Part shown: piece after piece, positions 21,095-35,519 of the stretch
Layout: each line of letters begins with the position of its first letter
Position numbering within the stretch: position 1 is the stretch's first letter
From: a virus
Direction: 5' to 3' (one strand)
Virus record (IMG/VR): IMGVR_UViG_3300045988_158900
DNA: 37,614 bases
Notes under the pieces: model-generated
Told to the model about the DNA's origin: nothing
The model's input: the letters and a program-made list of their open reading frames with translations, nothing else
Database searches by the model: none
Program-made: the position numbers and the translations under genes

Positions 21095-21138
21095 GCGTCC
21101 TATTTTTTTGCGGTTGGATTGTTAAAACTTTAACGAGC

Positions 21139-21633: not shown

Positions 21634-21637
21634 AATA

Positions 21638-21670
21638 ATAGGGCGAAAGCCCTATTTTTTTTTTATTTTT
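21638..21670 (+). terminator. Intrinsic terminator
   Basis: Hairpin ATAGGGCGAAAGCCCTAT followed by a T-run. Confidence 0.7.
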
Positions 21671-21742
21671 TTTGAAAAAACTATTGACAAATCGCGTTTA
21701 ACCTGCTATAATTAAACCATCAAAAGAGAGGAGCTAAACGCT

Positions 21743-21934: not shown

Positions 21935-22008
21935 GACAAGGGCGAAAGCCCTTGTTTTTTTTATATGGCATTATGCCCATAATTCGGTTGGAAATTTTGG
22001 TGATTTTG

Positions 22009-22112
22009 CCTATTGACATCCTGCCCCATTTATGTTATACTCGGTCGCGCGCCCACGGCCCTGGCGCGCGAAATTTACCATTATACCATGTCCCAGCAAT
22101 TTTGTCAATAGG
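22009..22112. repeat. Palindromic promoter element copy 1 (PE1): face-to-face consensus promoters flanking a GC hairpin
   Basis: CCTATTGACA...TGTTATACT on plus, a GC hairpin (GTCGCGCGCC cacggccct GGCGCGCGA), and the reverse complement of TTGACA-N17-TGGTATAAT on minus, ending ..TTGTCAATAGG. Confidence 0.65.
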
Positions 22113-22140
22113 CAAATCAAACAAAAATCATACATTCTGA

Positions 22141-22164
22141 ATCCCGAAATTTGTGCATTTTGAC
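22141..22164 (+). promoter_or_regulatory. Conserved upstream box ATCCCGAAATTTGTGCATTTTGAC preceding a class-2 promoter. Example of about 9 copies.
   Basis: Variants of the same motif recur 20-40 bp after each palindromic element, at about 21247, 23192, 24978, 26877, 29294, 30933, 32235, 33892 and 34989. Confidence 0.5.
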
Positions 22165-22224
22165 TATTGACATTCACGCGCCCCTGTGCTATACTGTATA
22201 CATAAAACAGAGGAAGTCATGAGT

Positions 22225-22497
22225 ATGACGCGTGAGTACAAGGTTCGGTTCATCGACAGCGAAGCCCAGCATAGCGAGACTGCCACTATCCAGTGGGATG
22301 TTGATACCAGCATCTGCGACCTTATCGAGGAACAGCTCTATATCCTGTGGGAGTTGCGCCCTTTGGAGCGTGAGTGGCGGAGACAGTTCTGTACCAATGG
22401 TTGGACGCGGTTTATATATGGCCTATATGAGCAGTTTTCTGTGTCCTATCCCTGGGATAATTCCAATATCATCACCGTTGAAAAAATCCAGGCTTGA
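22225..22497 (+). CDS. Hypothetical protein, 90 aa
   Basis: Promoter TTGACA-N17-TGCTATACT and RBS GAGGAAG lie 8 nt before ATG at 22225. Terminator CCAGGCTTGACCTGG followed by a T-run overlaps the stop. Confidence 0.55.
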   Translation: MTREYKVRFIDSEAQHSETATIQWDVDTSICDLIEEQLYILWELRPLEREWRRQFCTNGWTRFIYGLYEQFSVSYPWDNSNIITVEKIQA

Positions 22498-22577
22498 CCT
22501 GGATTTTTTTATTTTATGCTTGACAACAACCAATAGGTGTGCTATAATTGTATTATCAAATGAGGGAGGTATTCAAG

Positions 22578-22799
22578 ATGGAATACAGTGTGGTAGTCAA
22601 TAATGTTGAGGTCGTGCGCGTGAGCGGTGATGAAGCCGCGTGGAACAAGTTTGAAATGGCGTGTGAGTTGGTGCGGCTGATGCTGGCTGATGGTGGCTTT
22701 GGTGAAGCGTGGGCTGAACTCCGCGAGATGAACAGCGAACCTATCGCCCGCTTTGATGAAAAGGGTATGAGCGAGTGCGGCGCAGTCCGCGGAATGTGA
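22578..22799 (+). CDS. Hypothetical protein, 73 aa
   Basis: Promoter CTTGACA-N17-TGCTATAAT and RBS GAGGGAGG before ATG at 22578. Confidence 0.55.
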   Translation: MEYSVVVNNVEVVRVSGDEAAWNKFEMACELVRLMLADGGFGEAWAELREMNSEPIARFDEKGMSECGAVRGM

Positions 22800-22809
22800 G
22801 GTGCGACAA

Positions 22810-23007
22810 ATGAACGCTAAGGGATACACATTTTGCGGCGGAGCTGATGAACGGGATGTTCTCCGCTATGGCGAGTACCTGACCGATGAACAGTATACCA
22901 CATGGGACAAGCACTATTACCGCCTGCGCGCTATCCGCTACAACGGTAAACTGTACTGGCACAAGATGGTGGACGGCGAACTGGTTGAATTTAAGGTTTT
23001 GATTTAA
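22810..23007 (+). CDS. Hypothetical protein, 65 aa
   Basis: RBS GAGGTG lies 7 nt before ATG at 22810. Terminator GAGCCAAAATTTGGCTC followed by T7. Confidence 0.5.
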   Translation: MNAKGYTFCGGADERDVLRYGEYLTDEQYTTWDKHYYRLRAIRYNGKLYWHKMVDGELVEFKVLI

Positions 23008-23050
23008 TAATAAATGAGCCAAAATTTGGCTCATTTTTTTGTGCATTTTG

Positions 23051-23153
23051 CCTATTGACAAAATAGCATTTTTATGGTATAATTTTGGCCGCGCGTCTAC
23101 GACCCTGACGCGCGGAAATTCCATTATACCACAGCCCAGCCAATTTGTCAAGC
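23051..23153. repeat. Palindromic promoter element copy 2 (PE2)
   Basis: Same architecture: CCTATTGACA-N17-TGGTATAAT, hairpin GGCCGCGCG tctacgaccctga CGCGCGG, then reversed TATAAT/TTGACA. Confidence 0.65.
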
Positions 23154-23269
23154 ATTTTGTGTTCGGTATTTTCAACAATTTTTTATCCCGAAATTTGTGC
23201 AATTTGACGGTTGACAATGCTCAGTAGGTATGCTATACTTATACCATCAATTAAAGGAGGTCATTCACA

Positions 23270-23446
23270 ATGGCTACTATCGCAATCCTCGCAATCCTCG
23301 CCCTCGCTGGCTTTGCTGGCGTTCAGTGTGTCGGCGGGTATATGGTCTATCGTCAGACGCACGACTGGCACTTCCTCATTGGCTCTATCCTATATGGCGT
23401 TGCCTGTATCGGTCTGGTGCGCTTCGTGTTCAATATGGGGTGGTAA
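23270..23446 (+). CDS. 58-aa small membrane protein (MATIAILAILALAGFAGV...)
   Basis: Promoter GTTGACA-N17-TGCTATACT and RBS AAAGGAGG lie 8 nt before ATG. Two hydrophobic segments. Below the track length cutoff. Confidence 0.55.
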   Translation: MATIAILAILALAGFAGVQCVGGYMVYRQTHDWHFLIGSILYGVACIGLVRFVFNMGW

Positions 23447-23447
23447 T

Positions 23448-23771
23448 ATGGAAAACTACACTATGTCGAACCATCTGACAGAGGAGCGGGCTAACCGACT
23501 CGCCCTCTTACAGGAATACCTCGGATATTCCGACCGCGTGATGATTGAGGTCATTGACCAACGCCAAACCGCCCGTCTGCGTTTGCTCTCGACTGGCATC
23601 ATCTTGGTGCTGGACTTATATGAGAATTTCATCATCACCGCATACCCCGCAACTTTTGAACGGGCTGTCGCTATATACAAGAGTGCGGGCAAAAACCGTC
23701 TGCCCCAGCAGTTGGTCAAACGCATTCGCAAGAATGAGGAACGCCACCCTGAATTTTATGTGGTGAAGTAG
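23448..23771 (+). CDS. Hypothetical protein, 107 aa. The only island gene ending in TAG.
   Basis: ATG lies 1 nt after the upstream TAA. The 5-prime part of track ORF 23211..23771 overlaps the membrane peptide and lacks an RBS, so the start was moved to 23448. Confidence 0.5.
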   Translation: MENYTMSNHLTEERANRLALLQEYLGYSDRVMIEVIDQRQTARLRLLSTGIILVLDLYENFIITAYPATFERAVAIYKSAGKNRLPQQLVKRIRKNEERHPEFYVVK

Positions 23772-23842
23772 AAAATTGGGGCTTGACAAACAAGCCCCTA
23801 TCTGCTATAATAAATAATACCAAGAGAAAGGAGAATACCAAA

Positions 23843-24073
23843 ATGGAATTTATTGAACCCCCTATCTATGTCAAGTTGAGCGATGAAGAGCGCAATTCAC
23901 TCCATGAAGCCTATGTTATTCTAAATGACCTCGCGACTGCCGCCGAAGAAGATGACAGCGAATACATTGGCAACCCGCTAACTGGTGATGGCTATGGGCG
24001 GTTTGATGTGAGCCAAGCCGCTGAAATCTGCCGAGTGTTCGCGCCTGCTGAAAAACTGGAAATTAGTAATTGA
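23843..24073 (+). CDS. Small acidic protein family, copy 1 of 3 tandem paralogs (76 aa)
   Basis: RBS GAAAGGAGAAT. The segment EPPIYVKLSDEERNSLHEAYVILNDL aligns with copies 2 and 3. Confidence 0.6.
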   Translation: MEFIEPPIYVKLSDEERNSLHEAYVILNDLATAAEEDDSEYIGNPLTGDGYGRFDVSQAAEICRVFAPAEKLEISN

Positions 24074-24087
24074 GGGAGGAAAACAAA

Positions 24088-24315
24088 ATGGAAGTTATTA
24101 AACCCCCCATCTATGTCAAAATGACAGAGAAGGAGCGGAAAACCCTGCGCGATGCCTATGATATTCTGAATGAACTGTATGACGTCATCGCCGATAATGA
24201 CTGCGAGTATGTGAGCGATACTTGCGGGAATAACTATGACAGAGTGGACGTTGCGCTTACGGCTAATGTGCTTCAAATGCTTGCCCCCACTGAAAAAGTG
24301 GAAATCGGCAAATAA
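24088..24315 (+). CDS. Small acidic protein family, copy 2 of 3 (75 aa)
   Basis: RBS GAGGGAGG. The segment KPPIYVKMTEKERKTLRDAYDILNEL aligns with copy 1. Confidence 0.6.
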   Translation: MEVIKPPIYVKMTEKERKTLRDAYDILNELYDVIADNDCEYVSDTCGNNYDRVDVALTANVLQMLAPTEKVEIGK

Positions 24316-24330
24316 AAGGAGGTAAAACAA

Positions 24331-24561
24331 ATGAACATCATTACCTCAAACGTTCAGGTTCAACTCACCCAAGAGGAGAAGGACAAACTCCAAGACGCCC
24401 GCGAGGTTATTTCTCACCTGTTTGATTTGATGTATGACTACGAACAAGAATACGCTATTTCCAACATTGGCGAAAAGTATTCTATGGGCCAAGTCCGTGA
24501 TACCTCAAACCTGCTGGCCGCGCTTATCGGGTCTGATAAAATGCGGTTAGAAAATAAATAA
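24331..24561 (+). CDS. Small acidic protein family, copy 3 of 3 (76 aa)
   Basis: RBS AAAGGAGG. Same length and conserved ..LT.EE...L.DA..V...L..... pattern. Terminator at 24567-24591 is directly followed by the next -35 hexamer. Confidence 0.5.
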   Translation: MNIITSNVQVQLTQEEKDKLQDAREVISHLFDLMYDYEQEYAISNIGEKYSMGQVRDTSNLLAALIGSDKMRLENK

Positions 24562-24649
24562 AAAAAATGTGGGAGAAATCCCACATTTTTTATTGACAAC
24601 ACAACCAGTAGGTGTAGTATAATGTAGACAATGAAACAAGGAGGTAACA

Positions 24650-24856
24650 ATGACCACATTTCAAATTCGAGAGGAACTGGCGAACCGCTACAATTTAGAA
24701 ATCCGCAATGTCTGCTGTTATCACTGTGAATACTGGGGCTACAACCGCGGCAAGGTGCTGAATAGCGTGGGCGAGAGTAAATGTATGAAGCGCAAGAACG
24801 AGCGCACTTGGTGTCGTCAATTCTGCCGGGGTTTCGTTCCGAAATCAGGAAAATAA
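24650..24856 (+). CDS. Cys-rich zinc-binding small protein, 68 aa
   Basis: Track ORF with RBS AAGGAGG. Cysteine pattern CC-H-C ... C..C...C. Sequence MTTFQIREELANRYNLEIRNVCCYHCEYW... Confidence 0.55.
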   Translation: MTTFQIREELANRYNLEIRNVCCYHCEYWGYNRGKVLNSVGESKCMKRKNERTWCRQFCRGFVPKSGK

Positions 24857-24907
24857 ATCATTTGGGCTGGATAAACAAAAATCCAGCCCAATTTTTGTAT
24901 AATTTTC

Positions 24908-24966
24908 CACTTGACATTTTCGGCCGCGCGCTCACGAATGTGGCGCCCGGCATTTTTGTCAATAGG
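24908..24966. repeat. Palindromic promoter element copy 3 (truncated: arms plus hairpin, without -10 boxes)
   Basis: CCACTTGACA, hairpin, then ATTTTTGTCAATAGG. On plus the hairpin is followed by T5, so it is terminator-like. Confidence 0.5.
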
Positions 24967-25068
24967 TATACTTCACAAATTTTTCACCGCAATTTTGTGC
25001 ATTTTGACGATTGACTTCTATCCCGTAATACGGTATAATGGCTATACTGAAACAAGGAGGTAAGAACA

Positions 25069-25287
25069 ATGGAGTTGAAGAAAGCGTATCAGATGGTTTT
25101 CAGCGACCTGCATAATTGTCCTATGTTCCAAGGGCGGTATGACGCCATCAATGGCAATCCCTACTTTATGTTCGGCATTGAGACGGTTATGGAGGTAATC
25201 GCCAATCGCGCCTATGATGATGATTTTACCGAGAATTTCTCCAATGAATTTACTGACAATATGTTAAGGAGTAGAGAAAGTGTTTAA
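25069..25287 (+). CDS. Hypothetical protein, 72 aa
   Basis: Box plus promoter GATTGACT-N17-CGGTATAAT and RBS AAGGAGG. Track ORF. Confidence 0.55.
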   Translation: MELKKAYQMVFSDLHNCPMFQGRYDAINGNPYFMFGIETVMEVIANRAYDDDFTENFSNEFTDNMLRSRESV

Positions 25288-25465
25288 TATTGTATTGGCA
25301 CTAATCGTCGTAGGCGGGTGCGCGTGGGCGATTATCCACTTTATCCTCTGGCGAGACGAGAAATACTTATCCACCGAGGAGCAAATCCGCGAAATGATGG
25401 ACGAAACGTCCATTCCCACTGACACGCTGTGGAGTATGTATAACAAACTGACAGAGGGGCGTTAA
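25280..25465 (+). CDS. Small membrane protein, 61 aa (GTG start)
   Basis: RBS AGGAGTAGAGAAA-GTG. N-terminal TM helix MFNIVLALIVVGGCAWAIIHFILW. Confidence 0.45.
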   Translation: MFNIVLALIVVGGCAWAIIHFILWRDEKYLSTEEQIREMMDETSIPTDTLWSMYNKLTEGR

Positions 25466-25601
25466 TGCCCCTCTTGTTGGGTTTAGTCCTGGCTAACTAC
25501 ACGGAACAAAAAACTAATCCTGTGAGAATATAACTACAACAAAAATTTTTCTTGACATTTTCAAATAAATGTGGTAATATTATTATACTGAAAAAGGAGT
25601 G

Positions 25602-26078
25602 ATGACTGTGAACGCAATTATTCTATTCATTGTCTGTACCGCTATCAATGTGGTGCTGTCCACCATTAAGTCTATTTTGACTGTCAAAGGCAATAAGTGG
25701 ATTGCCGCCAGTATCAATGCGCTGACTTATGGCTTCTATTCCTATGTCATTATCCTGACCAACATTGACGGCGTTTCTACGTTGGCAAAAATGGGCATCA
25801 CCGCCGCCTGTAATTTCGTTGGTGTGCTGGCGGTCAAGTGGGTCGAGGAGCTGGCGCGCAAAGAAAAGTTGTGGAAAATCGAAATGACTGTTCCTACTAA
25901 GTATCGAGCCGCTGTGGATTTTGACCTGCGAGACATTCCCCACTCATACATTGAGATTAGCAACAAACATACACTATTCAATTTCTATTGTGCCACGCAA
26001 GCCGAGAGCAAAAAGGTCAAGGACATTGTAGCACAGTATGGCGCAAAATATTTCGTAGCAGAAAGCAAAAATTTGTAA
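25602..26078 (+). CDS. Membrane protein with three TM helices and a C-terminal soluble domain, about 158 aa. The start may instead be GTG at 25608.
   Basis: Promoter CTTGACA-N17-TGGTAATAT and RBS AAAAAGGAG. Hydrophobic N-terminal half. Function unknown (superinfection-exclusion-like topology). Confidence 0.5.
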   Translation: MTVNAIILFIVCTAINVVLSTIKSILTVKGNKWIAASINALTYGFYSYVIILTNIDGVSTLAKMGITAACNFVGVLAVKWVEELARKEKLWKIEMTVPTKYRAAVDFDLRDIPHSYIEISNKHTLFNFYCATQAESKKVKDIVAQYGAKYFVAESKNL

Positions 26079-26144
26079 AATAGGGGTTGACAAATCAGCC
26101 CCTATGTGTTAGAATGGTATCATCAAATAAGGGAGGATAACAAA

Positions 26145-26294
26145 ATGGAAATGATTAAAGTTTTCAATGACCACACTGGCGAAATCCTTGAAAAGACGTT
26201 CGTAGACCCCGCGGACGCGGACGACTTCGAGTTCATTCTCGACTTCCTTGAAACGAGATACGAACGCTACCACAACGGCGAACAAATCTACTAA
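26145..26294 (+). CDS. Small acidic protein, 49 aa
   Basis: Hairpin-embedded promoter ATAGGGGTTGACAAATCAGCCCCTAT..TGTTAGAAT and RBS AAGGGAGG before ATG at 26145. Confidence 0.5.
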   Translation: MEMIKVFNDHTGEILEKTFVDPADADDFEFILDFLETRYERYHNGEQIY

Positions 26295-26307
26295 GGAGGG
26301 CGCGACA

Positions 26308-26505
26308 ATGGAAATCAAAGATGTGTACTACAACGTTGAGTGGTGGGGCATAACCACTTGGGGCGAACGCTTCACTAATAGCGAATGGTTCAAGGATGAA
26401 AATGAAACTCTGTCGTTCATCGCGAATGACCTGGCGAATGACCCGCTTGTTCGCGGAGCGACCTTCACCACACACAAAACCATCGTATTTAAGAGAGGAG
26501 AATAA
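26308..26505 (+). CDS. Hypothetical Trp-rich protein, 65 aa
   Basis: RBS TAAGGAGGG before ATG at 26308. Sequence MEIKDVYYNVEWWGITTWGERF... Confidence 0.5.
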   Translation: MEIKDVYYNVEWWGITTWGERFTNSEWFKDENETLSFIANDLANDPLVRGATFTTHKTIVFKRGE

Positions 26506-26507
26506 AA

Positions 26508-26705
26508 ATGTTTACTGCTCTGTTTTTGGTACTGGTATGCCTTGGCATCGACTTCCTGTTCTCTGCTGGCTTCTCCCCGCCATTGGCATCGTGTCCATCG
26601 GCTCTTTCGTTATCGCGTTCTCGTGGAAACTGGTGCTGGTGTTTTGGCTCATTGTCGCAATCCTGCGTTCCATCTTCCGCGTCACTGTCAAGAGTTAATA
26701 AATGA
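26508..26705 (+). CDS. Small membrane protein with ambiguous frame. The ATG/RBS frame (26508..26705) and a -1 frame (26540..26698) both look coding.
   Basis: RBS AGAGAGGAG before ATG at 26508 gives a TM start MFTALFLVLVCLGIDFLF followed by a low-complexity tail. The -1 frame gives two clean TM helices (MPWHRLPVLCWLLPAIGIVSIGSFVIAFSWKLVLVFWLIVAIL). Possible frameshift or indel. Confidence 0.35.
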   Translation: MFTALFLVLVCLGIDFLFSAGFSPPLASCPSALSLSRSRGNWCWCFGSLSQSCVPSSASLSRVNK

Positions 26706-26745
26706 AAAATCTCCCAAATTTGGGAGATTTTTTTTGTTTATTTTG

Positions 26746-26848
26746 CCTATTGACAAAAACCCCTATTTGTGGTATACTCGGCCGAGCGCCCACGGCCCTG
26801 GCGCTCGAAATTTCCATTATACACCCTGCCAGCAATTTTGTCAATAGG
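26746..26848. repeat. Palindromic promoter element copy 4 (PE4)
   Basis: CCTATTGACA-N17-TGGTATACT, hairpin CGAGCGCC cacggccct GGCGCTCG, then reversed TATAAT..TTGTCAATAGG. Confidence 0.65.
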
Positions 26849-26985
26849 TAAATTGAACAAATTTACCCAAGCGCGCATCCCGAAAGTTTGTGCGAAATGA
26901 CCAAGAGCAGAATTGAAAAAAACTGTTGACAAATCGCGTTTTATCCTGTATAATAGCATTACAATCAAGAAAGGAAGTTGATACT

Positions 26986-27432
26986 ATGACTATCTATCTG
27001 GACATGGACGGGACTATCGCCGACCTGTATGGCGACCCTAACTGGCTGGCAAAGCTGGAAGCCGCGGACACGAGCGTATATGCGGACGCCCGCCCGCTTG
27101 TCCACTTCTCCACCCTCGCCCGCTATCTGAACCGCTTACAGGCGCGGGGCTACAATATCGGCATCATCAGCTGGCTGTCCAAGAGCGGAACGGATAAGTT
27201 CAATGCCGAAGTTGCCGAAGTCAAGCGCGACTGGCTGGCAAAGCATCTCCCCAGCGTGGAATGGGATGAAATTCATATTATCCCCTATGGCGTTCCTAAG
27301 TCCAACTGTGCGACCTGCCCCAACGCGATTTTGTTCGATGATGAACAGCGCAACCTCAACGAGTGGACGGCAAACACCCACAATATGGCATACAACGCCG
27401 ACCTTCTAATGGAAATTCTGCGCAACCTGTAA
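26986..27432 (+). CDS. 5-prime(3-prime)-deoxyribonucleotidase, HAD superfamily (NT5C-like), 148 aa
   Basis: N-terminal HAD motif I IYLDMDGTIADLYG and later ILFDDE. Box plus promoter TGTTGACA-N17-TGTATAAT. RBS GAAAGGAAGTTGATACT-ATG is shared with the two cassette A genes. Confidence 0.65.
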   Translation: MTIYLDMDGTIADLYGDPNWLAKLEAADTSVYADARPLVHFSTLARYLNRLQARGYNIGIISWLSKSGTDKFNAEVAEVKRDWLAKHLPSVEWDEIHIIPYGVPKSNCATCPNAILFDDEQRNLNEWTANTHNMAYNADLLMEILRNL

Positions 27433-27544
27433 AAAAAATAGCAAATAGGGGTTGACAATCTCACTCCTATTTGCTATAATATGTAATGTAATTAAGGTAT
27501 GGGACACGATGGTAAGCCCAACCAAGAGAAAAGGAGAATGAACA

Positions 27545-28201
27545 ATGAAAAATATCTACTGCACGCTGGATACTGAAACGGTAGGCGGCGCGGCTCGCCC
27601 CACGGGAATGTATAATGTGGGCGCGATTATCCACGACCGCAAGGGCGAAATTCTCGCCACCACTTCCCTGCTGGTGATGGAGCATTATGACGAAATCGCC
27701 CTTGATGGCTACGCCAAGAAGAATTTTCCGGTGTATGCCGAACGGCTCAAAACTGGCGAAATCTCCGCTATCGCCACGGAGCGCGAAGCCTATGAGGTAG
27801 TCAAAAACCTGTGCGACCATTACGGCGTTCGCTATGTGATGGCATACAATTCCGGTTTTGACTTCTGCAAGACCTGTTTCCGCGACCTGCTGGATAATTT
27901 CGAGTTCATCGACTTGTATCTTATGGCACTGGAAACTATCACCCACAAAAAGTCCTATGCGGAATATTGTCGAGAACACGGCAAGCGTTCCAAGAATGGC
28001 AAGACCTGTGCAACCTCTGTCGAAGCGGTGTATGGTTATCTCCACGATAATCCTGACTTTTCCGAAGAACACACCGCCCTGTCTGACGCTATGCAGGAAA
28101 TGGAAATTTTCCTCGCCTGTCAGAAGATGCACAAGCGATACACCAAGAACGTCCACGCATGGGACGCACCTTTTGAGGTAAAATGTTTTCCCAAGTTTTG
28201 A
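27545..28201 (+). CDS. DEDDh-family 3-prime-5-prime exonuclease (DnaQ/RNase T-like), 218 aa
   Basis: Exo I CTLDTETVG, Exo II YVMAYNSGFDFCK, Exo III HTALSDAMQEMEI (H-x4-D). Preceded by a 10-codon uORF MVSPTKRKGE (27508-27540) inside a conserved leader. Confidence 0.7.
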   Translation: MKNIYCTLDTETVGGAARPTGMYNVGAIIHDRKGEILATTSLLVMEHYDEIALDGYAKKNFPVYAERLKTGEISAIATEREAYEVVKNLCDHYGVRYVMAYNSGFDFCKTCFRDLLDNFEFIDLYLMALETITHKKSYAEYCREHGKRSKNGKTCATSVEAVYGYLHDNPDFSEEHTALSDAMQEMEIFLACQKMHKRYTKNVHAWDAPFEVKCFPKF

Positions 28202-28268
28202 GATTGGGGCTTGACAGCCCCTTTCTCATGTGGTATAATGACTATACTAAGACAAGGAGGTAAGCGAA

Positions 28269-28484
28269 ATGCCTATTAAGCAAGTGCTTTTTAAGGGCGA
28301 CCATTCTGATGGTGTTCAGGCTGGCATTCAGCTTGAAAATGGTTTCGTAATCTGTGCCTGTTGCGGCGGAGTATTTGAGCCTGATGAAATCGAAATTCTC
28401 CACGTGTTCGATTATTGGGTTGACTTCTCCGAATGGATTGGCGACCCTGACCTGACTGAATACCGTAAGCACGACACCCCGTAA
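28269..28484 (+). CDS. Hypothetical small protein, 71 aa (4 Cys)
   Basis: Hairpin-embedded promoter GGGGCTTGACAGCCCC..TGGTATAAT and RBS CAAGGAGG. Track ORF. Confidence 0.55.
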   Translation: MPIKQVLFKGDHSDGVQAGIQLENGFVICACCGGVFEPDEIEILHVFDYWVDFSEWIGDPDLTEYRKHDTP

Positions 28485-28558
28485 AAAAAGTTTGGAATGG
28501 GGGTTGACAACGCCCCCATTCCATGCTATAATAACATTACAAATTCAAGGTAGGGGAA

Positions 28559-29089
28559 ATGATGGTAAGCCCCACCAACAGAAAAGGAGAAAAAACTATA
28601 AAAGCTCGCTATGCTAACCTGACTAACTTCAATCGCGTGGTCAATACCTACAAATGGATGGTTTCCAAGTTCGGAAGTAAGGAGTTCTCCTCTGAGGACT
28701 TTAAACAGGCAAAGCGCAAGTATCGGCGATACACCTACAATTCCCTTGCGTTTCTGCGGGACGAGGGTATCATCAAGGTAGTCCGCACCGAACAGACCAC
28801 CAAGGAAATTAACCTGTCTCCGTGGGAAGCGGACATTTGGATGATTGACAAGGATGGCAGCGCCCTGATGACCGAGTATGACTGGGTACGTTTGCCGGAC
28901 GTGGCGCAGAACGCTCTGCGTGCTCTGAATGGACAGAATTTCCGCACGGAGCGCAAGGACACCAAGACTGTGGAAGTGGAAAAGTCCATTTACACGGTCA
29001 ATCCTGATGGTATGCTGGCATGCGCAAGAGGTATGGGCGTCTGTTGGCTGAAAGGGCTGACGCGCTGGCGGGCGAAATCGCAAACCTGA
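28559..29089 (+). CDS. Hypothetical protein, 176 aa. Its N-terminus MMVSPTNRKGE is homologous to the uORF of the exonuclease leader.
   Basis: Promoter GGAATGGGGGTTGACAACGCCCCCATTCC..TGCTATAAT. The leader is about 85% identical to the 27480-27545 leader, but here it is fused in-frame to the ORF. Confidence 0.5.
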   Translation: MMVSPTNRKGEKTIKARYANLTNFNRVVNTYKWMVSKFGSKEFSSEDFKQAKRKYRRYTYNSLAFLRDEGIIKVVRTEQTTKEINLSPWEADIWMIDKDGSALMTEYDWVRLPDVAQNALRALNGQNFRTERKDTKTVEVEKSIYTVNPDGMLACARGMGVCWLKGLTRWRAKSQT

Positions 29090-29172
29090 ACGAAAAGCGG
29101 GACGCATTTCTCGCTTGTCAGTTCTAACAAAAATGAGGGGAGTTTTCCCCTCATTTTTTTTGTATAATTTTC

Positions 29173-29274
29173 CCTATTGACAAATGCGCCTGGACATGGT
29201 ATAATGGCCGGCCGATTTCGCGCGTCTCGGCCGGAATTCACCATTATACACCCCGCCAGCAATTTTGTCAATAG
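29173..29274. repeat. Palindromic promoter element copy 5 (PE5)
   Basis: CCTATTGACA-N17-TGGTATAAT, hairpin CCGGCCGA tttcgcgcgtc TCGGCCGG, reversed promoter ending TTGTCAATAG. Confidence 0.65.
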
Positions 29275-29365
29275 TTTTTTTACACAAATTTTTTTATTTA
29301 TTTTTCCCAAAACTTGTATAGTTTGCCTGTTGTAATCCATGCCCACCTGTGCTATACTACATAAT

Positions 29366-29925
29366 GTCAAGAGGGAGTGAGACCCCGTGGGCTGGGCTAA
29401 TGGTATGTAATGTCCCAAGTGTAAGTGAGAGCGCGCCGTACTGAAAAAAAAGACCAAAATTCCCTCTTGACAAACTCCATCAAAGGTGCTATAATGGGTA
29501 GTGTCAAGAGGGGAACGGCACGGCAGATGCGTCTAATGTGTCGCCTGTGTAGACAGGTTTCAGAAATTTGGAAAAATTTCAAAAAACCTCTTGACAAACC
29601 CCAACACCTGTGTTATAATTGATAATGTCAAGAGGGGAACAGCCCCACCCAAGAAATCCGCGGGTCGCGAACCGTGAGAGAGTAAAGGAAGTAAGCCCTA
29701 TACCAGCGCAGTAATCCCAAACGATGAACGAAAAGTGAGTGGATTGGTCAGTTCGTCCATGCGCATGGAAACGTTGAACCAACAAGCAACACCTTATTCG
29801 TCAGGCGAGGTTGTAAGTCGTTGTGAATACTTGTGGGACGTTCCCCTGTTGGCACTATTAAAAAAAATCAAGAATTTTGAAAAAAAGTCTTGACAATCCC
29901 AGCGTAAGCTGTTATAATAGATAAT
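29366..29925 (+). ncRNA. Tandem array of three promoter-driven small structured RNAs (about 105, 85 and 265 nt) with a conserved 5-prime AAUGUCAAGAGGG(G)AAC leader
   Basis: Promoters at 29318-29359, 29467-29495 and 29591-29619, each TTGACA-N17-TATAAT. Each transcript 5-prime GUCAAGAGGG can pair with the CCCUCUUGAC that forms the next -35 region. No ORF longer than 10 codons. Tiny GTG-started ORF (M)GWANGM at 29387-29410. Confidence 0.5.
29890..29918 (+). promoter_or_regulatory. Consensus promoter of cassette 1 (TTGACA-N17-TATAAT)
   Basis: Exact hexamers. The transcript begins AAUGUCAGGAGGGCAAAGCCCUC (5-prime hairpin) before the RBS. Confidence 0.6.
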
Positions 29926-29974
29926 GTCAGGAGGGCAAAGCCCTCAAAACCAAATGGAGAAAGGAATTGATACT

Positions 29975-30355
29975 ATGGCTAACACTAACACCACCACCCG
30001 CAAGCCCACCAAACGCGACAATTTCACCGCCCTGCTCAAGCTGTCCGAGGTCAAGGCTGACCCCAAGCTGGTGGAGTTCATCACCCACGAAATCGACCTG
30101 CTCGACCGCAAGAACACCGTGGACAAGAAGCCCACCAAGACCCAGCAGGAGAATGAGGCCATCAAGACCACTGTCCTGTCCGCTATGGAGAGCAACCGGC
30201 TGTATTCCATCAGCGAGATGCTCAAAGAGTTCCCCGTCTGCAAGGACATGAGCAATCAGAAGCTGTCCTCTCTGGTGCGGCAGATGGTGCTGGATAAGCA
30301 GGTGGAGCGCGTGGAGGACAAGCGCAAGGCGTTCTTCCGCAAGGTGAGCGCGTAA
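29975..30355 (+). CDS. Cassette protein A1, 126 aa (paralog of A2)
   Basis: RBS GAAAGGAATTGATACT-ATG. Conserved with A2: TKRD.FTALLK, ELLDRKNTVDKKPT.TQ, SNQK.SSLVRQMVLD.Q..R.EDKRKA.F. Confidence 0.6.
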   Translation: MANTNTTTRKPTKRDNFTALLKLSEVKADPKLVEFITHEIDLLDRKNTVDKKPTKTQQENEAIKTTVLSAMESNRLYSISEMLKEFPVCKDMSNQKLSSLVRQMVLDKQVERVEDKRKAFFRKVSA

Positions 30356-30406
30356 ACCTCAAAGGGTGGGGAGCAATCCCCACCCTAACCCTGAAAGGAG
30401 TACCGC

Positions 30407-30763
30407 ATGACTGACCGAGTTGCCGACCTCATGCGAAAGCTGGATTGTACCGAAGCCGAAGCCAAGGACATTATTGTTCAAGATGCTATCATCGACAAGG
30501 GCGGCAATCCATTTCCGCTGACCGAGGAACAGGAAAAGGCAAGCAAGAAAGCGCGGGGAGTAGGACGCCAGCCGACCGCATACAAGTTCGCGCCAAAAGA
30601 AAGAAAGGCTAATCTCACAAAGCAGGGCATTATCACCCTACTGACCGAGACACTGACCACATACGGCGCGACTGACCTGAACGTGAGCAACGTGGAGCGC
30701 GAATTTTTATTCACGCTTGATGGAACAAAATACAAGGTTGTGCTGTCGTGTCCGCGCAAGTGA
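30407..30763 (+). CDS. Cassette protein B1, 118 aa (paralog of B2)
   Basis: RBS GAAAGGAG. Conserved with B2: PTAYKF..(K/R)ERKAN.TK..II..L. Terminators flank the gene. Confidence 0.6.
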   Translation: MTDRVADLMRKLDCTEAEAKDIIVQDAIIDKGGNPFPLTEEQEKASKKARGVGRQPTAYKFAPKERKANLTKQGIITLLTETLTTYGATDLNVSNVEREFLFTLDGTKYKVVLSCPRK

Positions 30764-30801
30764 GGGAGAGAAATTCTCCCTCATTTTTTTTGTGTATTTT
30801 G

Positions 30802-30903
30802 ACTATTGACAAATTTGGGCGCGTGTGGTATAATTCGGTCGCGCGTCCACGTATGTGGCGCTCGAAATTTCTATTATACACCCCATTGGCAATTTTGTCA
30901 AGC
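30802..30903. repeat. Palindromic promoter element copy 6 (PE6)
   Basis: GACTATTGACA-N17-TGGTATAAT, GC hairpin with loop CCACGTATGTG, reversed promoter ending TTGTCAAGCG. Confidence 0.6.
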
Positions 30904-31013
30904 GTTTTTTTACACAAATTTCAAAGATTGAAAATCCCGTTTTTTGTAGGTATTGCCTATTGTAATTCTCCTGTAATGTGCTATAATGATGATACTGAAA
31001 GGAGCGATGAACG

Positions 31014-31697
31014 ATGGAGTTTCCGAGAGTTCAGGATTTTATCCTGACCATTCAGCAGGCGGTGTCTAAAAAACCGCGTTTGGTCAACCGCGCTGATGAC
31101 CTGTGCCGAGTTATCCACAACACATACCCTGATGTCAAGATAATCACCAGCAACGGCGCAAGCAAGGAATGTCTGGTGTTCCCTGAGTTGGGCTATGTCC
31201 TCAAATGGTCTATGGAGACGCGGGACGCAGAGCGCGAAGTGGCTGTGTATCAGAAAGCCGTAGACGCAAACCTCGCTGATTTTTTCCCCGCCACTATGCT
31301 GGCTGGCTACATTGTTCCCCCGCGCAAGTGTGATAATCCTGTTGCATTTACCGCACAACAGATTATTAACACCAGTGCCCATAAAATCCATTGGAGTAAG
31401 GGCGGGTTGAAAACTCGTCTTTCGCGTATCGCACAGACTGTCCCCGATTGTCGTATTTCTCAGATTGAACGGCAGTTCCGCAAAGCTGATGTTAATGGCT
31501 ATGGGCGCGACCTCGATGGGCTATGGGCGAAAGTTGCCGTTTCTATCTACGGTAAGCGCAAGGTTATCGCCCTCTGTGAGTTCGTTAAAAAGTATCACAT
31601 CAATGACCTCCACGGCTCAAATATCGGCTACATTGGCATCTTTCCTGTTATCCTCGATTTCTCCGGCTATGGCGTCTGTGATGGTTTAGAGTTTTGA
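31014..31697 (+). CDS. Hypothetical protein, 227 aa
   Basis: Box plus promoter TATTGTAA-N17-TGCTATAAT and RBS GAAAGGAG. Track ORF. ATG at 31005 in another frame gives only 20 aa. Confidence 0.55.
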   Translation: MEFPRVQDFILTIQQAVSKKPRLVNRADDLCRVIHNTYPDVKIITSNGASKECLVFPELGYVLKWSMETRDAEREVAVYQKAVDANLADFFPATMLAGYIVPPRKCDNPVAFTAQQIINTSAHKIHWSKGGLKTRLSRIAQTVPDCRISQIERQFRKADVNGYGRDLDGLWAKVAVSIYGKRKVIALCEFVKKYHINDLHGSNIGYIGIFPVILDFSGYGVCDGLEF

Positions 31698-31741
31698 AAA
31701 AAACTCTTGACAAACAGCCCCGCCTGTGCTATACTAACATC

Positions 31742-32095
31742 GTGAGGTGAGAAAAATGAAATGGCGATTGTATCGTCCCCCTTAGTAATCAATCTATGAT
31801 TATTGATTAGATATATTTATAGATTGATTAAGACCCCAGCCAAGATGGAGTTTAATAGAGTGTTTGTCCCACTCAATAATTTCTTCTCAACCGCCATCTT
31901 GAACCCCTCGTTAGAAATTGGGACTGGGTACGAAGTTCTAACCACATTCACCGTGTGCCGAGAAAGACCCTCCATAGTGGGCTTTGCGCCCCGGTTTTGG
32001 GTCTACTGTGTAGAAGTGGGCTGGCTGTCCGGACGGCTGGCGAACATCAACAGGGGAACCAGCGTAGTAGCCAACTACGCTGGTTTATTTTTGTT
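31742..32095 (+). ncRNA. About 350-nt promoter-to-terminator non-coding transcript with a 9-codon leader ORF MKWRLYRPP (31756-31785, TAG stop)
   Basis: Promoter TTGACA(31707)-N17-TGCTATACT(31730). Terminator CAGCGTAGTAGCCAACTACGCTGG followed by a T-run at 32060-32100. Only a 9-codon ORF has an RBS (GAGGTGAGAAAA-ATG). The track ORF 31803..32132 lacks an RBS and reads through the terminator. Confidence 0.45.
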
Positions 32096-32102
32096 TATTT
32101 TG

Positions 32103-32203
32103 CCTATTGACAAATGCGCTCGAATGTGTTAAAATGGGTCGGGCGCTCACGGCTGTGGCGCCCGAAATTTCCATTATACCACGTGGCACAAATTTTGTCA
32201 AGT
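32103..32203. repeat. Palindromic promoter element copy 7 (PE7)
   Basis: CCTATTGACA-N17-TGTTAAAAT, hairpin TCGGGCGC tcacggctgtg GCGCCCGA, reversed TATAAT..TTGTCAAGTG. Confidence 0.65.
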
Positions 32204-32294
32204 GTTTTTTTGCACAAATTTTGAATGTTGAAAATCCCATTTTTTGTGAGTATTGACTATTGTAATTTGCCCAAGGGTGTGGTAATATATAATT

Positions 32295-32440
32295 GTTCCA
32301 AGGGAGAGGGTAAGACCTCCGGCGGGGCGTGTACCTTAAAAAAAAATTCCACAAATCCGAAAAAAAGTCTTGACAAGGCTTCGGATATGTGTTAGAATAT
32401 AGATGTTCCAAGAGGGAAACAACAATATGGTGGGCGACAC
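32295..32440 (+). ncRNA. Two tandem small RNAs with an UUGUUCCAAG(G)GAG leader variant and a 5-codon uORF MVGDT preceding cassette 2
   Basis: Promoters at about 32253-32289 and 32370-32398 (TTGACA-N17-TAGAAT). Same organisation as 29366-29925. Confidence 0.4.
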
Positions 32441-32466
32441 CTAAAAACGCAGAAAGGGTTGATACT

Positions 32467-32919
32467 ATGACTGCTATCACTTCCACCGCTAACCGCCGTA
32501 TGACCAAGCGGGACTACTTCACCGCCCTCAAAACCTTTGCCGAGGTGGGCGAGTTCAAGTTCCCCATTTCCCAGCGTATCGGCACTTCCGAGGACTTCGA
32601 GACTGTCTATGTGGACATTTCTCCCGCAGAGATAGCGGAGTTCGCCAAGCATGAGCTGGAACTGCTCGACCGCAAGAACACCGTGGACAAGAAGCCGACC
32701 GCCACGCAGGTGGCAAACGAGGGTATCAAGGCTGACATCAAAGCGTTTCTGGACGCCCACAAGGGCGAGAAGTACACCGTGTCTGCTCTGATGAAGTCTG
32801 TTCCCACTATCGCCGATGCGTCCAATCAGAAGGTTTCTTCTCTGGTGCGTCAGATGGTGCTGGACGGTCAGGCAGACCGTATCGAGGATAAGCGCAAGGC
32901 GTATTTCACCGCCAAGTAA
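32467..32919 (+). CDS. Cassette protein A2, 150 aa (paralog of A1)
   Basis: RBS AAAGGGTTGATACT-ATG, identical spacing to A1 and the NT5C gene. Terminator GGGGGGGAGATATTCTCCCCCC follows. Confidence 0.6.
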   Translation: MTAITSTANRRMTKRDYFTALKTFAEVGEFKFPISQRIGTSEDFETVYVDISPAEIAEFAKHELELLDRKNTVDKKPTATQVANEGIKADIKAFLDAHKGEKYTVSALMKSVPTIADASNQKVSSLVRQMVLDGQADRIEDKRKAYFTAK

Positions 32920-32977
32920 GGTATGGGGGGGAGATATTCTCCCCCCTATCCCCTAAAATCTGAAAAGGCGGTGTTTT

Positions 32978-33376
32978 ATGGCTGAAATCTCCAAAACCGA
33001 ATGGCTGAAAAACGCTATGGCGAAAATGGGCTGGACTGCCGATGAAGCGGAAGCCGTGTGGAACTCTGACCGAGAAATCGACAAGGGCAAGGCACAGGAT
33101 TTTGACCTGTCGAAAGAACAGCTCAAAATTGCCCAAAAATTCGCCAAGACTGGCACTCGCAAGACCCCCACCGCATACAAATTCACTACGAGGGAACGCA
33201 AGGCAAATCCCACGAAAGCGTCCATTATCGCTGAACTCGCAACATTTTTGACCGAAAACAGCGAAAATGCCTGCGAAAATGTGGAAATTACCAACAAAGA
33301 GCGTCAAATTGCGTTCAAAATCGGTGAAAATTCCTATGAACTGACTCTTGTGCAGAAGCGCAAGCCGAAAAGTTGA
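32978..33376 (+). CDS. Cassette protein B2, 132 aa (paralog of B1)
   Basis: Track ORF. Conserved PTAYKFTTRERKANPTKASIIAEL with B1. Confidence 0.55.
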   Translation: MAEISKTEWLKNAMAKMGWTADEAEAVWNSDREIDKGKAQDFDLSKEQLKIAQKFAKTGTRKTPTAYKFTTRERKANPTKASIIAELATFLTENSENACENVEITNKERQIAFKIGENSYELTLVQKRKPKS

Positions 33377-33426
33377 GAAAATGGGGGAGAAATCCCCCAT
33401 TTTCCCCAGAAAACGAGGAAAAAAGT

Positions 33427-33771
33427 GTGAAAAACAAGGAATTTTTGTATGTAGGGCACTATTATGATGAAAATGGCGTATACATTCTGAAAATAGGCAC
33501 TACTAATGACTTAAAGCGCAGACAGCAGGAACACACGAGAAACTACCGCAAGACCGCCGTTCACCGTTTACCGCACAATTCTGAATTTATTTACGATTTT
33601 TCGCTACCGCTTTCCAAGTATAATACTTTGCGATACGAGGACAAAAACCGTGAGAAATGGCAGAAAATGGGATACGGTGTGTTTGTGAGAAATGACAGAT
33701 TTGCATGTCCTGTGAAGCCAAAATCTGTTGAAATTACCATTCGTCGAACTTACCAAATCGCTCTCGATTGA
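33427..33771 (+). CDS. GIY-YIG domain protein (T5orf172-like), 114 aa, GTG start
   Basis: RBS GAGGAA 6 nt before GTG. Motif LYVGHYYDENGVYILKIGTTNDLKRRQQEH matches GIY..(10)..YIG.T.NL.RR..EH. Confidence 0.55.
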   Translation: MKNKEFLYVGHYYDENGVYILKIGTTNDLKRRQQEHTRNYRKTAVHRLPHNSEFIYDFSLPLSKYNTLRYEDKNREKWQKMGYGVFVRNDRFACPVKPKSVEITIRRTYQIALD

Positions 33772-33794
33772 GGGCGATTTTTTTATTCAATTTG

Positions 33795-33870
33795 ACTATT
33801 GACAACGCCCTCTGACTGTGGTATAATGGGTCGGGCGCTCACGGATGTGGCGCCCGGCATTTTTGTCAAG
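33795..33870. repeat. Palindromic promoter element copy 8 (right arm truncated)
   Basis: GACTATTGACA-N17-TGGTATAAT, hairpin CGGGCGC tcacggatgtg GCGCCCG, then CATTTTTGTCAAG. Confidence 0.55.
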
Positions 33871-33994
33871 ATACATTTTCAACAATTTTTCCGGCGAAAA
33901 TTTGTATAAATTGACTATTGCATTTTGTCCCGAAATGCGCTATACTATAAACAATCTGAGGGAGCTGGAACCCACCAACAGCACGGAGGCATTT

Positions 33995-34606
33995 ATGAAT
34001 AAGAGCCAGTTTTTTGACCACGAAATCGAGTTCATTCAGTCCGAGGATTTGCGCTCATTCGTGCGCTACTACTTCGACTGTATCGTTCCCGACTATTTCT
34101 GGACTATCGGCGCAAGTTCTTCCGGCAAGTTCCATCCGGCTATGAGCCAAGGCGAGGGCGGTTTGGTGCGCCACACTAAGGCGGTCGCGTGGTTTTGCGA
34201 GGAATTGCTCCGCATGAGCCAGTGGGCGTATCTCACTGACGAGCGCAAGGACTACGCAAGAGTTGCCTGTCTGCTCCACGATACCGCCAAGTATGGCTTA
34301 CACGAGTTCGACAAGGAGTTGTACCCCAAGCACGGGGCTATGGCGGCTGACCAAGTTCGCCGTTCGTGGCTGGTATTTTTCGAGAATGACTGCCCCTATG
34401 AGTTGACGCAAGCCATCAAGTCCCACATGGGTCAGTGGACTACCGACAAGGCGGACAGACCTTTCACTCCTATCGACAGACTGGTACACATGGCTGACTA
34501 TGTGGCAAGCCGTTCGTTCATCGACATTCCGGCAATTAACGCTGACTATAACGACAAGGCGGAACTGGACGAAATTTCGCCTGAACTGCCGTGGGAGGAG
34601 GAATAA
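33995..34606 (+). CDS. HD-domain metal-dependent phosphohydrolase, 203 aa
   Basis: H..(about 35)..HD motif (FHPAMSQGEGGLVRHTKAV ... CLLHDTAKY). Box plus promoter ATTGCAT-N17-CGCTATACT. The leader contains CCCACCAACAGCACGGAGG, related to the exonuclease leader. Confidence 0.65.
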   Translation: MNKSQFFDHEIEFIQSEDLRSFVRYYFDCIVPDYFWTIGASSSGKFHPAMSQGEGGLVRHTKAVAWFCEELLRMSQWAYLTDERKDYARVACLLHDTAKYGLHEFDKELYPKHGAMAADQVRRSWLVFFENDCPYELTQAIKSHMGQWTTDKADRPFTPIDRLVHMADYVASRSFIDIPAINADYNDKAELDEISPELPWEEE

Positions 34607-34608
34607 TC

Positions 34609-34743
34609 GTGACCCCTAAATTTTACTTCAACGCTGACGAGAATGTATGCGCGAGTGAGCACTGGGTCATCCAGTATCTCCACATACAAAATCCCGACAT
34701 AGACGAGGATGAAATCGAGGGCGAACTCCACTCCCGCCGGTAA
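34609..34743 (+). CDS. Small acidic protein, 44 aa, GTG start overlapping the HD gene stop
   Basis: RBS GGGAGGAGGAATAATC-GTG. Sequence MTPKFYFNADENVCASEHWVIQYLHIQNPDIDEDEIEGELHSRR. Below the track cutoff. Confidence 0.4.
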   Translation: MTPKFYFNADENVCASEHWVIQYLHIQNPDIDEDEIEGELHSRR

Positions 34744-34837
34744 TATTTCGGTTGGTATGAGTGTCAAATGTCCGATGACATTTTCAACAACTTTTGTTAA
34801 AGGTGGAGAAATCCACCTTTAATTTTTGTTCATTTTG

Positions 34838-34950
34838 CCTATTGACAACGCGAGCCCAGTGTGGTATAATAAAAGGGGAGGTGCAACGGGCCGAGCGCGG
34901 GCGCTGCGGTCCGAATTTCCATTCTCCCACCCCATATGGAAAATTTTCCG
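34838..34950. repeat. Palindromic promoter element copy 9 (degenerate right arm). Followed by three CATATG-containing palindromes at 34933-35010.
   Basis: CCTATTGACA-N17-TGGTATAAT, GC hairpin GGCCGAGCGCGGGCGCTGCGGTCC, then GAATTTCCATTCTCCCACC. Confidence 0.45.
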
Positions 34951-35144
34951 TGATTCTAGCGGCCTTCATATGCGCCCATATTTTCCCGAAAATCCGAGCC
35001 CCGCTCGGTACTCATATGCCGCCCGGTTTGACATAAAAAAAAATTTATGTTATAATGATAAAAAAAACCATTTTTTTTCTCACTTGACTTTTAAAAAAAT
35101 TTTTTGTATAATATATGTATACAAAATGAAAAGAGGTTATTTAT

Positions 35145-35519
35145 ATGAATAAGAACGATATTCTGACGCGCTTAATGAATGGCGAGAGCGCTGAGGATAT
35201 TGCTAAGGAAATGACTGCGATGCTGAATGACGCCACTAAGGCATATGCTGACCAGAAGAAGGACAAGGAAAAGATGGCCCGAGCGGAAGCGGTTGCCGAT
35301 ACTATCAACGACTATGCGGCCTACGTCGGCTATAAGGGCGCAGAGTTGAAGGGTGAGGACGTCATTAAGGTTATGGACAGTTTCCTTAAATTCTACAAGG
35401 ACCCAGGTAATTTCAAAATTGAACTCCCCGGTTTCCGTTTTGAAACAAACTCTAAGGGTGCGATTAAGAAGGGCAAAACCGTTGATGAAATCATCAACGA
35501 CTGGATTTCTCGCATTTAA
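35145..35519 (+). CDS. Hypothetical protein, 124 aa (last island gene, with an AT-rich promoter)
   Basis: Track ORF. Promoter CTTGACT-N17-TGTATAAT and RBS AAAGAGG. Strong terminator at 35533-35595. Confidence 0.55.
   Translation: MNKNDILTRLMNGESAEDIAKEMTAMLNDATKAYADQKKDKEKMARAEAVADTINDYAAYVGYKGAELKGEDVIKVMDSFLKFYKDPGNFKIELPGFRFETNSKGAIKKGKTVDEIINDWISRI

Follow-up and report, generated by a model that had tools for sequence, protein, structure and literature searches.

The IMG/VR virus record IMGVR_UViG_3300045988_158900 is 37,614 nucleotides (nt) long, and this whole stretch of DNA is referred to here as the window. Our subject is a region of its plus strand (29290-29965) in which four promoters follow one another ahead of a small gene, A1, each of them leading into the same short leader motif. 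An earlier note on this DNA, the original prediction, had described these as tandem promoters for small structured RNAs, with each leader able to pair with the -35 element of the next promoter. The parts of the array, and the genes that it precedes, are listed below; z is the stability of a fold relative to shuffled sequence, and the helix labels of unit 3 are distinct from the promoter names.

29330-29358, plus strand: promoter P1, first of the array; TTGTAA, 17-bp spacer, TG, TATACT; 9 of 12 positions match
29364-29472, plus strand: unit 1 (alpha); leader AUGUCAAGAGGGAG with UUCCCUCUUGACA of the next promoter in a predicted 14-bp closing helix; z -3.17
29467-29495, plus strand: promoter P2, perfect, with TG extension; its -35 and flank also supply the 3' strand for unit 1
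29501-29596, plus strand: unit 2 (beta); predicted 10-bp closing helix with the P3 -35, three internal hairpins; z -4.85
29591-29619, plus strand: promoter P3, perfect, with TG extension
29625-29854, plus strand: unit 3 (gamma RNA), about 230 nt; closing helix P1, hairpin P2, long-range helix P3, hairpin P4
29855-29889, plus strand: A-rich spacer, judged by the known consensus to be UP-element-like for promoter P4
29890-29918, plus strand: promoter P4, last ahead of the gene, perfect, with TG extension
29924-29974, plus strand: final leader and 5' untranslated region (UTR); AUGUCAGGAGGG, hairpin GAGGGCAAAGCCCTC at 29931-29945, then ribosome-binding region GGAGAAAGGAATTGATACT
29975-30355, plus strand: gene A1, 126 aa; N-terminal helices and a C-terminal winged helix in the AlphaFold model
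30407-30763 and 30758-30786, plus strand: gene A2 and the first plus-strand terminator past the array

The description of all four promoters as consensus holds for P2, P3 and P4 and is too generous for P1. The shared leader stands as described: (A/G)TGTCA(A/G)GAGGG starts 5 nt past the -10 element of each of P1 to P4, and the four promoter-plus-leader copies align as a single direct-repeat family. With up to three mismatches allowed, the 15-mer TGTCAAGAGGGGAAC has 8 copies in the window against 0.58 expected. Strong promoters are common in this DNA, with 25 perfect TTGACA-17-TATAAT sites in the window (0.03 expected), nearly all of them carrying the TG extension, and other equally perfect promoters of the window are without the leader motif. 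No terminator-like site was found on the plus strand between 29158 and 30758. The array presents a cluster of at least two strong co-directional host promoters, with no intervening terminators, upstream of a gene whose expression is probably early.

Read as its reverse complement, the leader gives the consensus -35 element with its flank. Pairing with the next -35, as originally proposed, is found in units 1 and 2, where 29365-29376 is complementary to 29461-29472 at 12 of 12 positions and 29502-29511 to 29587-29596 at 10 of 10. It is not what closes unit 3, whose leader matches the next -35 (GTCTTGACA) over only about 8 bp and pairs instead with a segment of its own. We collected 136 distinct units of this kind, 90 of them without an open reading frame (ORF) and 38 left once near-duplicates had been removed. 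The minimum-energy fold joins the first 12 nt to the last 14 nt by at least six pairs in 30 of the 38, and mean z is -2.97 for whole units and -0.81 for their interiors. Because the interiors lie so near shuffled stability when set against the whole units, the closing helix is the main structural signal.

The pattern of change within the helix bears on whether it forms in RNA. Among 52 distinct leader/partner combinations, positions 2-7 are paired in every one, and positions 8 and 9 have three mismatches each; at position 8 an A-U pair has become G-C in three combinations, from three contigs. Those mismatches aside, wherever one strand alone has changed at positions 3-9 (C to U or A to G) the result is a G·U pair, which is possible only in plus-strand RNA. 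Promoters that stand first in an array lack the CCTC flank, and their leaders pair over 8-9 bp with the next flank versus 5-6 bp with their own. Final leaders, which have no promoter downstream, can form a local hairpin instead, both in other phages and in the window, where the hairpin claimed for the fourth leader is present. If transcription starts 6 nt after the -10, as it does at early promoters of like type in a Firmicute phage (PMC7698491), the helix lies within a few nucleotides of the 5' end. The leader/-35 pairing thus behaves as an RNA helix, and these sequence comparisons leave it well supported, if not proven.

Unit 3 closes on its own 3' segment GTTCCCCTGTTGGCA (also given as GUUCCCCUGUUGGCA), with 29626-29640 facing 29840-29854; its arms of 27 nt are 78% complementary, and it folds with z -3.1. 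A pattern search recovered 29 distinct homologues of 140-245 nt, from which 18 non-redundant sequences were aligned. All have in common the first 70 nt and the last 40 nt, with a variable centre between them. In most homologues the closing helix takes the next promoter as its 3' strand (CCTCTTGACA), and in the subtype found in the window the helix has been extended by matched 6-nt insertions (GGGGAAC/GTTCCCC) and no promoter supplies the 3' strand. Compensatory changes are seen in hairpins P2 and P4 and in the long-range helix P3. For the structure as a whole, 99.2% of cells are paired versus 28-47% with slid partners, compensatory change is seen in three pairs, and the covariation score is equalled by no shuffle, the double changes coming mainly from one split between two subtypes and so amounting to a handful of events. 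The gamma RNA lies upstream of different genes in different phages. An Rfam scan, proposed at the outset as a check, gave no family for the array: Rfam 15 had no match at the gathering threshold anywhere in the window and none on the plus strand of 29290-29965 at E values up to 10 (29100-32500 searched). Identities as a 6S-like RNA, a riboswitch or a ribozyme were rejected for lack of a covariance-model match, and tRNA and tmRNA scans returned nothing relevant. The alignment supports placing unit 3 in a conserved structured RNA family with four helices. Contigs assembled with bacterial genomes share a second conserved family, of 167-229 nt.

Relatives of A1 were found in 25 viral loci at 40-99% identity, and all 25 have 2-5 tandem consensus promoters in the upstream 1.1 kb, about 90-300 bp apart, of the form aaaaaaCCTCTTGACA-17-TATAAT followed by AAGAGGG-type starts. 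The exact 15-mer occurs in 37 viral loci and stands 5 nt after a -10 in 22 of them. Many of these loci encode homologues of A1 or of its paralogue B1; elsewhere the modules precede unrelated genes, in one case a tRNA. The same promoter-leader is also present on about 12 contigs assembled with genomes of Oscillospiraceae, Ruminococcus, Lachnospiraceae and other Clostridia. On a contig binned with a Treponema genome (locus L173), a like promoter-leader array at about 3679-4000 ends in a tRNA gene with the anticodon loop TTTTAAT (anticodon UUA), which would read the stop codon TAA.

The closest relatives show how the array changes. In strains whose A1 is 94-99% identical to that of the window, whole units have been inserted, deleted or replaced exactly at promoter boundaries (the window was compared with loci L038, L039, L040 and L044). 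The shortest promoter spacing is 87-100 bp, about one polymerase footprint. Repeated promoter-bearing sequence therefore marks the indel boundaries between close relatives, which is also a property of the PeSL cassettes considered below; the composite of terminator stem-loop followed by promoter that goes with those cassettes is absent from the tandem units and is seen in the junction element at 29129-29271. The view that this is something other than spacer DNA is borne out, and the comparisons support a modular non-coding system conserved ahead of one gene family even between phages with no more than 40-50% protein identity.

The reading that we prefer, with a probability of roughly one half, is that the array is a series of same-direction, exchangeable, non-coding promoter-plus-leader modules in the early, standard-code part of the phage genome, and that it works by stabilisation through a 5' helix. 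Each module would consist of a near-ideal host sigma-A promoter (an A-rich tract, TCTTGACA, a 17-bp spacer, TGn and TATAAT), with transcription starting about 6 nt past the -10 and with first bases, (A)UGUCAAGAGGG(G)AAC, that complement the consensus -35 and its flank. Once the next promoter had been transcribed, the RNA would pair by its 5' end with CCUCUUGACA in a helix beginning 1-2 nt from that end; unit 3 would use its dedicated segment as partner, and the last leader its own hairpin. Since the promoters share one direction and the first terminator lies only beyond A2, all of them would feed the A1-A2 operon and their outputs would add up. The spacing of the closest promoters would correspond to a polymerase footprint plus an A-rich element, and all sites could be occupied at once. 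In a Firmicute host the 5'-terminal helix would most likely shield the long untranslated leaders from 5'-end-dependent decay by RppH and RNase J1. In Bacillus subtilis, 5' structure, a ribosome-binding-like sequence and a 14-bp duplex between 5' and 3' UTR govern access of RNase J1 and RNase Y (PMC3997798, PMC5737220), and with these precedents and a helix placed at the 5' end, protection appears by analogy to be the most economical role. Because the leader complements the promoter consensus itself, any module could close on any downstream promoter, which fits the shuffling. The promoters, the conserved leader and its pairing, the modular gain and loss, the gamma family and the absence of terminators are all demonstrated in silico.

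Several observations weigh against this reading. The core of the helix is nearly invariant and true covariation is thin, because the 3' strand is also a -35 element; each test has three double changes, mostly from one or two lineages, and the shuffle controls are generous for related sequences. Of 35 informative units, 11 have leaders that pair better with their own -35 flank, against 17 that pair better with the next and 7 that pair equally with both. Some leaders have no visible partner (as in locus L019) and GGAAC is conserved past the paired part, so pairing cannot be the only constraint on the leader. The first unit of cassette 2, the second array of the window, is not predicted to fold (z +1.5). 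Stabilisation also leaves the conservation of bodies such as gamma unexplained. Finally, we infer the start sites, the read-through, the stabilisation, the high expression and any separate functions of the unit bodies.

In a rival reading, in line with the original prediction, each unit would be a free-standing small RNA gene, its RNA freed by processing, for example at the A-rich spacers or the closing helix, and acting in trans as a regulator, sponge or decoy. The variable bodies would then be functional and the constant ends a stabilising clamp, and the two models are not exclusive. We consider this a possible alternative, though a tentative one. Every unit has a very strong promoter of its own; gamma is conserved, structured and found ahead of differing genes, with the second family beside it; unit 2 folds sharply, its minimum-energy structure being identical to the centroid; and the combination of constant ends with highly variable bodies fits a clamp carrying a payload. 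Abundant non-coding RNAs, as yet uncharacterised, are also on record for Firmicute phages (PMC7698491). Against this, the units have the promoter of a small RNA gene and lack its intrinsic-terminator 3' end, they match nothing in Rfam, most interiors are scarcely above shuffled stability, and the shortest units leave only about 20-30 nt from the leader to the next A-rich tract. When the window was searched for sequences antisense to the units, only the expected self-matches came up. The original prediction had the transcripts ending at the next -35 as discrete RNAs of 80-270 nt. Nothing in the sequence marks such ends, and without terminators every promoter should read into A1-A2 unless the RNA is processed; with no terminator ahead of A1, discrete small RNAs are unproven. 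More speculative still is a new class of phage RNA genes in which the -35 hexamer of each promoter would also be the 3' strand of the helix clamping the preceding RNA, to give an interchangeable string of closed RNA "beads". Once processed, the beads would be stable early RNAs with diverse bodies, gamma and other families among them, and would affect the host in trans, perhaps by decoying ribonucleases, RNA-binding proteins or RNA-guided defences.

A doubtful alternative of another kind makes the complementarity to the -35 incidental. The leader would be an initial transcribed sequence optimised for promoter escape, or a ribosome-binding-like 5' stabiliser. Its purine-rich sequence (AAGAGGGG) at a fixed distance from the -10 would suit such a role, as would the partnerless leader of L019, which stands ahead of ordinary genes, and the conservation of GGAAC. 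The start region of the T5 promoter N25 is likewise purine-rich. The version of this view in which the leader binds the 30S subunit is modelled on the STAB-SD cases and on the polypurine 5' stabiliser of phage SP82, which is on record (Hue et al. 1995, listed in PMC3997798). It fits less well that GAGGGG is a worse match to the anti-Shine-Dalgarno sequence than the real sites of the window (AAGGAGG, GGAGG), and that TGTCAA is not purine-rich and is the exact reverse of the -35. Neither the compensated changes and matched insertions nor the equally perfect promoters that do without the motif are expected from an optimised start region.

The same symmetry could be read in DNA: TGTCAAGAGGGGAAC over the start, together with an inverted copy beside the -35, would bind a repressor, possibly A1 itself, that shuts the promoters after the early phase. 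The motif spans +1 to +15, a classic repressor position, and is strongly linked to genes of the A1/B1 family; the C-terminal winged helix of A1 resembles MecI, MarR and PadR; GGAAC is conserved though often unpaired, and some leaders have no RNA partner. Promoters within an array have both operator-like arms, but those that stand first have one half-site only, the upstream one being absent. The changes in the leader are G·U-type transitions that keep RNA pairing and break DNA symmetry. Gamma has as its partner a non-promoter segment about 200 bp distant, lengthened by a matched insertion, and final leaders exchange the distant partner for an adjacent RNA hairpin. The same leader also precedes unrelated genes and a tRNA, and the Foldseek E values behind the repressor likeness are weak (0.007 at best). 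On this balance an operator seems unlikely.

That the units encode small proteins or leader peptides, whether in the standard code, as leaderless ORFs from the leader ATG or in a code with TAG as sense, is very improbable: the leader ATG gives mechanical ORFs of 26 and 29 codons and mini-ORFs do exist, but in relatives the ATG is ATT or GTG, the conserved 5' part of gamma contains 1-nt and 8-nt indels, no mechanical ORF matches a PHROG, and no long ORF appears in any stop-reassigned code. Two earlier statements change accordingly. It had been said that no ORF exceeds 10 codons, and the leader ATG or GTG in fact opens frames of 26, 11 and 29 codons, all without a ribosome-binding site; the tiny leader ORFs (M)GWANGM and MVGDT exist as stated and are not conserved, the MVGDT stretch being an ATG-less hairpin in relatives. 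A protein-coding gene in an alternative frame or code, which had been named as an outcome that would overturn the non-coding interpretation, was sought in TAG-, TGA- and TAA-sense codes, and no long ORF was found. The suggested leader-peptide or attenuation module falls as well, since relatives do not keep the mini-ORFs and attenuation would have no terminator to act on; attenuator, riboswitch and leader-peptide control were rejected in the same way, for want of a terminator and a conserved leader ORF. We also rejected a minus-strand promoter made from the leader's reversed TTGACA, which has no -10 at the right distance.

Gene A1 starts at 29975, after the conserved ribosome-binding region GAAAGGAATTGATACT; an in-frame ATG at 29924, chosen by some gene callers, is not conserved. 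A1 belongs to no Pfam or PHROG family, and sequence searches of A1, A2, B1 and B2 against Pfam, PHROGs and the PDB were uninformative. The fold search is the sole lead to a winged helix: in the AlphaFold model (pLDDT 84) this domain superposes on those of MecI, MarR and PadR at about 2.4 Å over about 64 residues, with the weak Foldseek E values already given. Directly before the ribosome-binding site of the A1 family in other phages lies a small hairpin, GGGYRGCGACCNACCGCC, whose stem varies in a compensated way (loci L011, L013, L027, L045 and others upstream of A1 homologues; in the window, 32428-32445). A ribosome-binding site with its spacer, GAAAGGAnTTGATACTATG, is reused at 26968, 29958 and 32449.

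Further features of the same part of the genome are the second array and the element that lies upstream of the first.

32260-32466, plus strand: two-promoter region of cassette 2, with promoters at 32260-32288 and 32370-32398, upstream of B1 (32467-32919)
29129-29158: symmetrical intrinsic terminator; ends the upstream gene and would also stop RNA from the minus-strand promoter at 29271
29177-29271: cassette-junction element; plus-strand promoter 29177-29205, GC hairpin 29207-29234, and a facing minus-strand promoter 29243-29271; both promoters perfect

Cassette 2 had been presented as a parallel array. It does have two promoters with a variant leader, (U)UGUUCCAAG(G/A)G (core TTGTTCCAAG), for which a local hairpin is possible, and the parallel stops short of its first unit, with no predicted fold. 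The junction element, of about 110 bp, stands after cassette terminators in 7 copies, including a half copy at 33799-33850; the others are at 22013-22108, 23055-23151, 26750-26844, 30806-30901 and 32107-32201. Its layout is a plus and a perfect minus promoter facing each other across a GC-rich hairpin, followed by GAAATTTCC, and the stem covaries among copies. The minus promoter at 29271 would yield an RNA of about 115 nt stopping at the terminator 29129-29158 (z -3.6). Some unit bodies and junction hairpins have a possible likeness to CRISPR repeats (ATTGAAAC-like and GTCGCGC-hairpin sequences), on which we make no claim.

The window as a whole is DNA of a gut phage with TAG-recoded late genes, and its host is probably a member of the Clostridia. 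Its left 17 kb (minus strand, about 30% GC) holds virion protein genes and is tiled without breaks by ORFs only with TAG as a sense codon; between about 19.0 and 35.1 kb, GC rises to 45-50%, the code is standard, and the genes are small cassettes with a promoter and a terminator each. The split in composition and coding within one phage genome, between 1-17077 (minus strand) and 19000-35100, is abrupt. No suppressor tRNA was found in the window. A 368-aa protein of the late block (a PHROG with no function assigned) has kin in the TAG-recoded gut phage phAss-1 and in Enterococcus EF1-type siphoviruses; Clostridia have been proposed as the hosts of phAss-1 (PMC10607447). Relatives are IMG/VR contigs of 100-198 kb, and megablast of 27000-35500 matched no GenBank phage.

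Three other parts of the GC-rich region caught our attention. In the otherwise non-coding kilobase that opens it, the palindrome GATTGTTAAAAATTTAACAATG occurs in multiple copies (19466-19550, 19985-20005, 20096-20170, 20246-20268 and 21118-21136); the copies resemble iterons or operators and may form an origin, a partition site or a repressor array. At 31707-32092, a TTGACA/TATACT promoter is followed by about 345 nt without a credible ORF and by a strong terminator (32056-32086); the segment folds with z -3.95, has no Rfam match and is a candidate stand-alone non-coding RNA, properly terminated unlike the tandem units. A second conserved leader, AAGGTAnGGGnnAnGATGGTAAGCCCnACCAA, follows the promoters at 27452 and 28504 (27481-27545 and 28533-28600; also in loci L007 and L159). 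In relatives this leader contains a mini-ORF, MVSPTK*, that precedes the main gene; at 27509 the mini-ORF is MVSPTKRKGE* and overlaps the ribosome-binding site, and at 28559 it is fused in frame to an ORF.

The arrangement upstream of A1 is real, conserved and, as far as our literature searches could show, previously undescribed. We class it as a form of tandem early promoter cluster with added structure in the 5' leader, and it brings with it at least one new family of structured RNA. If the stabilisation model holds, it would be a case of dual coding, in which one 10-nt element is both promoter DNA and the strand of an RNA helix, and would give phages a route to assembling, reshuffling and stabilising early transcripts that are long and untranslated. 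In a large group of uncultured phages of gut Clostridia, the conserved leader motif identifies early transcription units. The work offers handles on early gene control in TAG-recoded phages, in the form of four predicted starts (29364, 29501, 29625 and 29924), a testable helix and a candidate winged-helix regulator, and the promoter-plus-leader module could serve as a strong, self-insulating expression part for Firmicutes.

Among known systems, the nearest in layout are the A1-A3 promoters of coliphage T7 and like clusters in T5 and SPO1/SP82, in which strong co-directional promoters for the host polymerase, about 100-130 bp apart and without terminators, stand before the first early gene. The window shares with T7 the several strong promoters in one direction, the lack of terminators and the additive output that we propose. 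It differs from T7 in that each promoter has an invariant leader complementing the -35, the RNAs between promoters are predicted to fold closed, the number of units varies between strains, and one unit is a conserved structured RNA of 230 nt. In T4-type phages, the repeated early-promoter sequences of PeSL cassettes flank small variable cassettes and mark the break-points of indels and replacements (PMC2839356, PMC4122927). The modules of the window likewise sit at break-points between close relatives. However, PeSL elements are a terminator plus a promoter between protein genes of Gram-negative myoviruses, whereas these modules enclose non-coding RNA, have no terminators and would form their stem between the leader and the next promoter. 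The 5' stabilisers of B. subtilis (ermC, the SP82 polypurine, hbs) offer the same elements as the proposed leader, namely 5'-end structure, a ribosome-binding-like sequence or a long-range duplex of about 14 bp (PMC3997798, PMC5737220); here the partner strand would be a promoter element and the design is serial. Finally, Staphylococcus phages of the genus Kayvirus have dozens of TTGACW-17-TRTGnTATAnT early promoters and highly expressed non-coding regions (PMC7698491). Their early promoters, those of a Firmicute phage, have the same form and start 6 bp after the -10, but they belong to a separate phage lineage in which tandem leader modules and leader/-35 complementarity are unreported.

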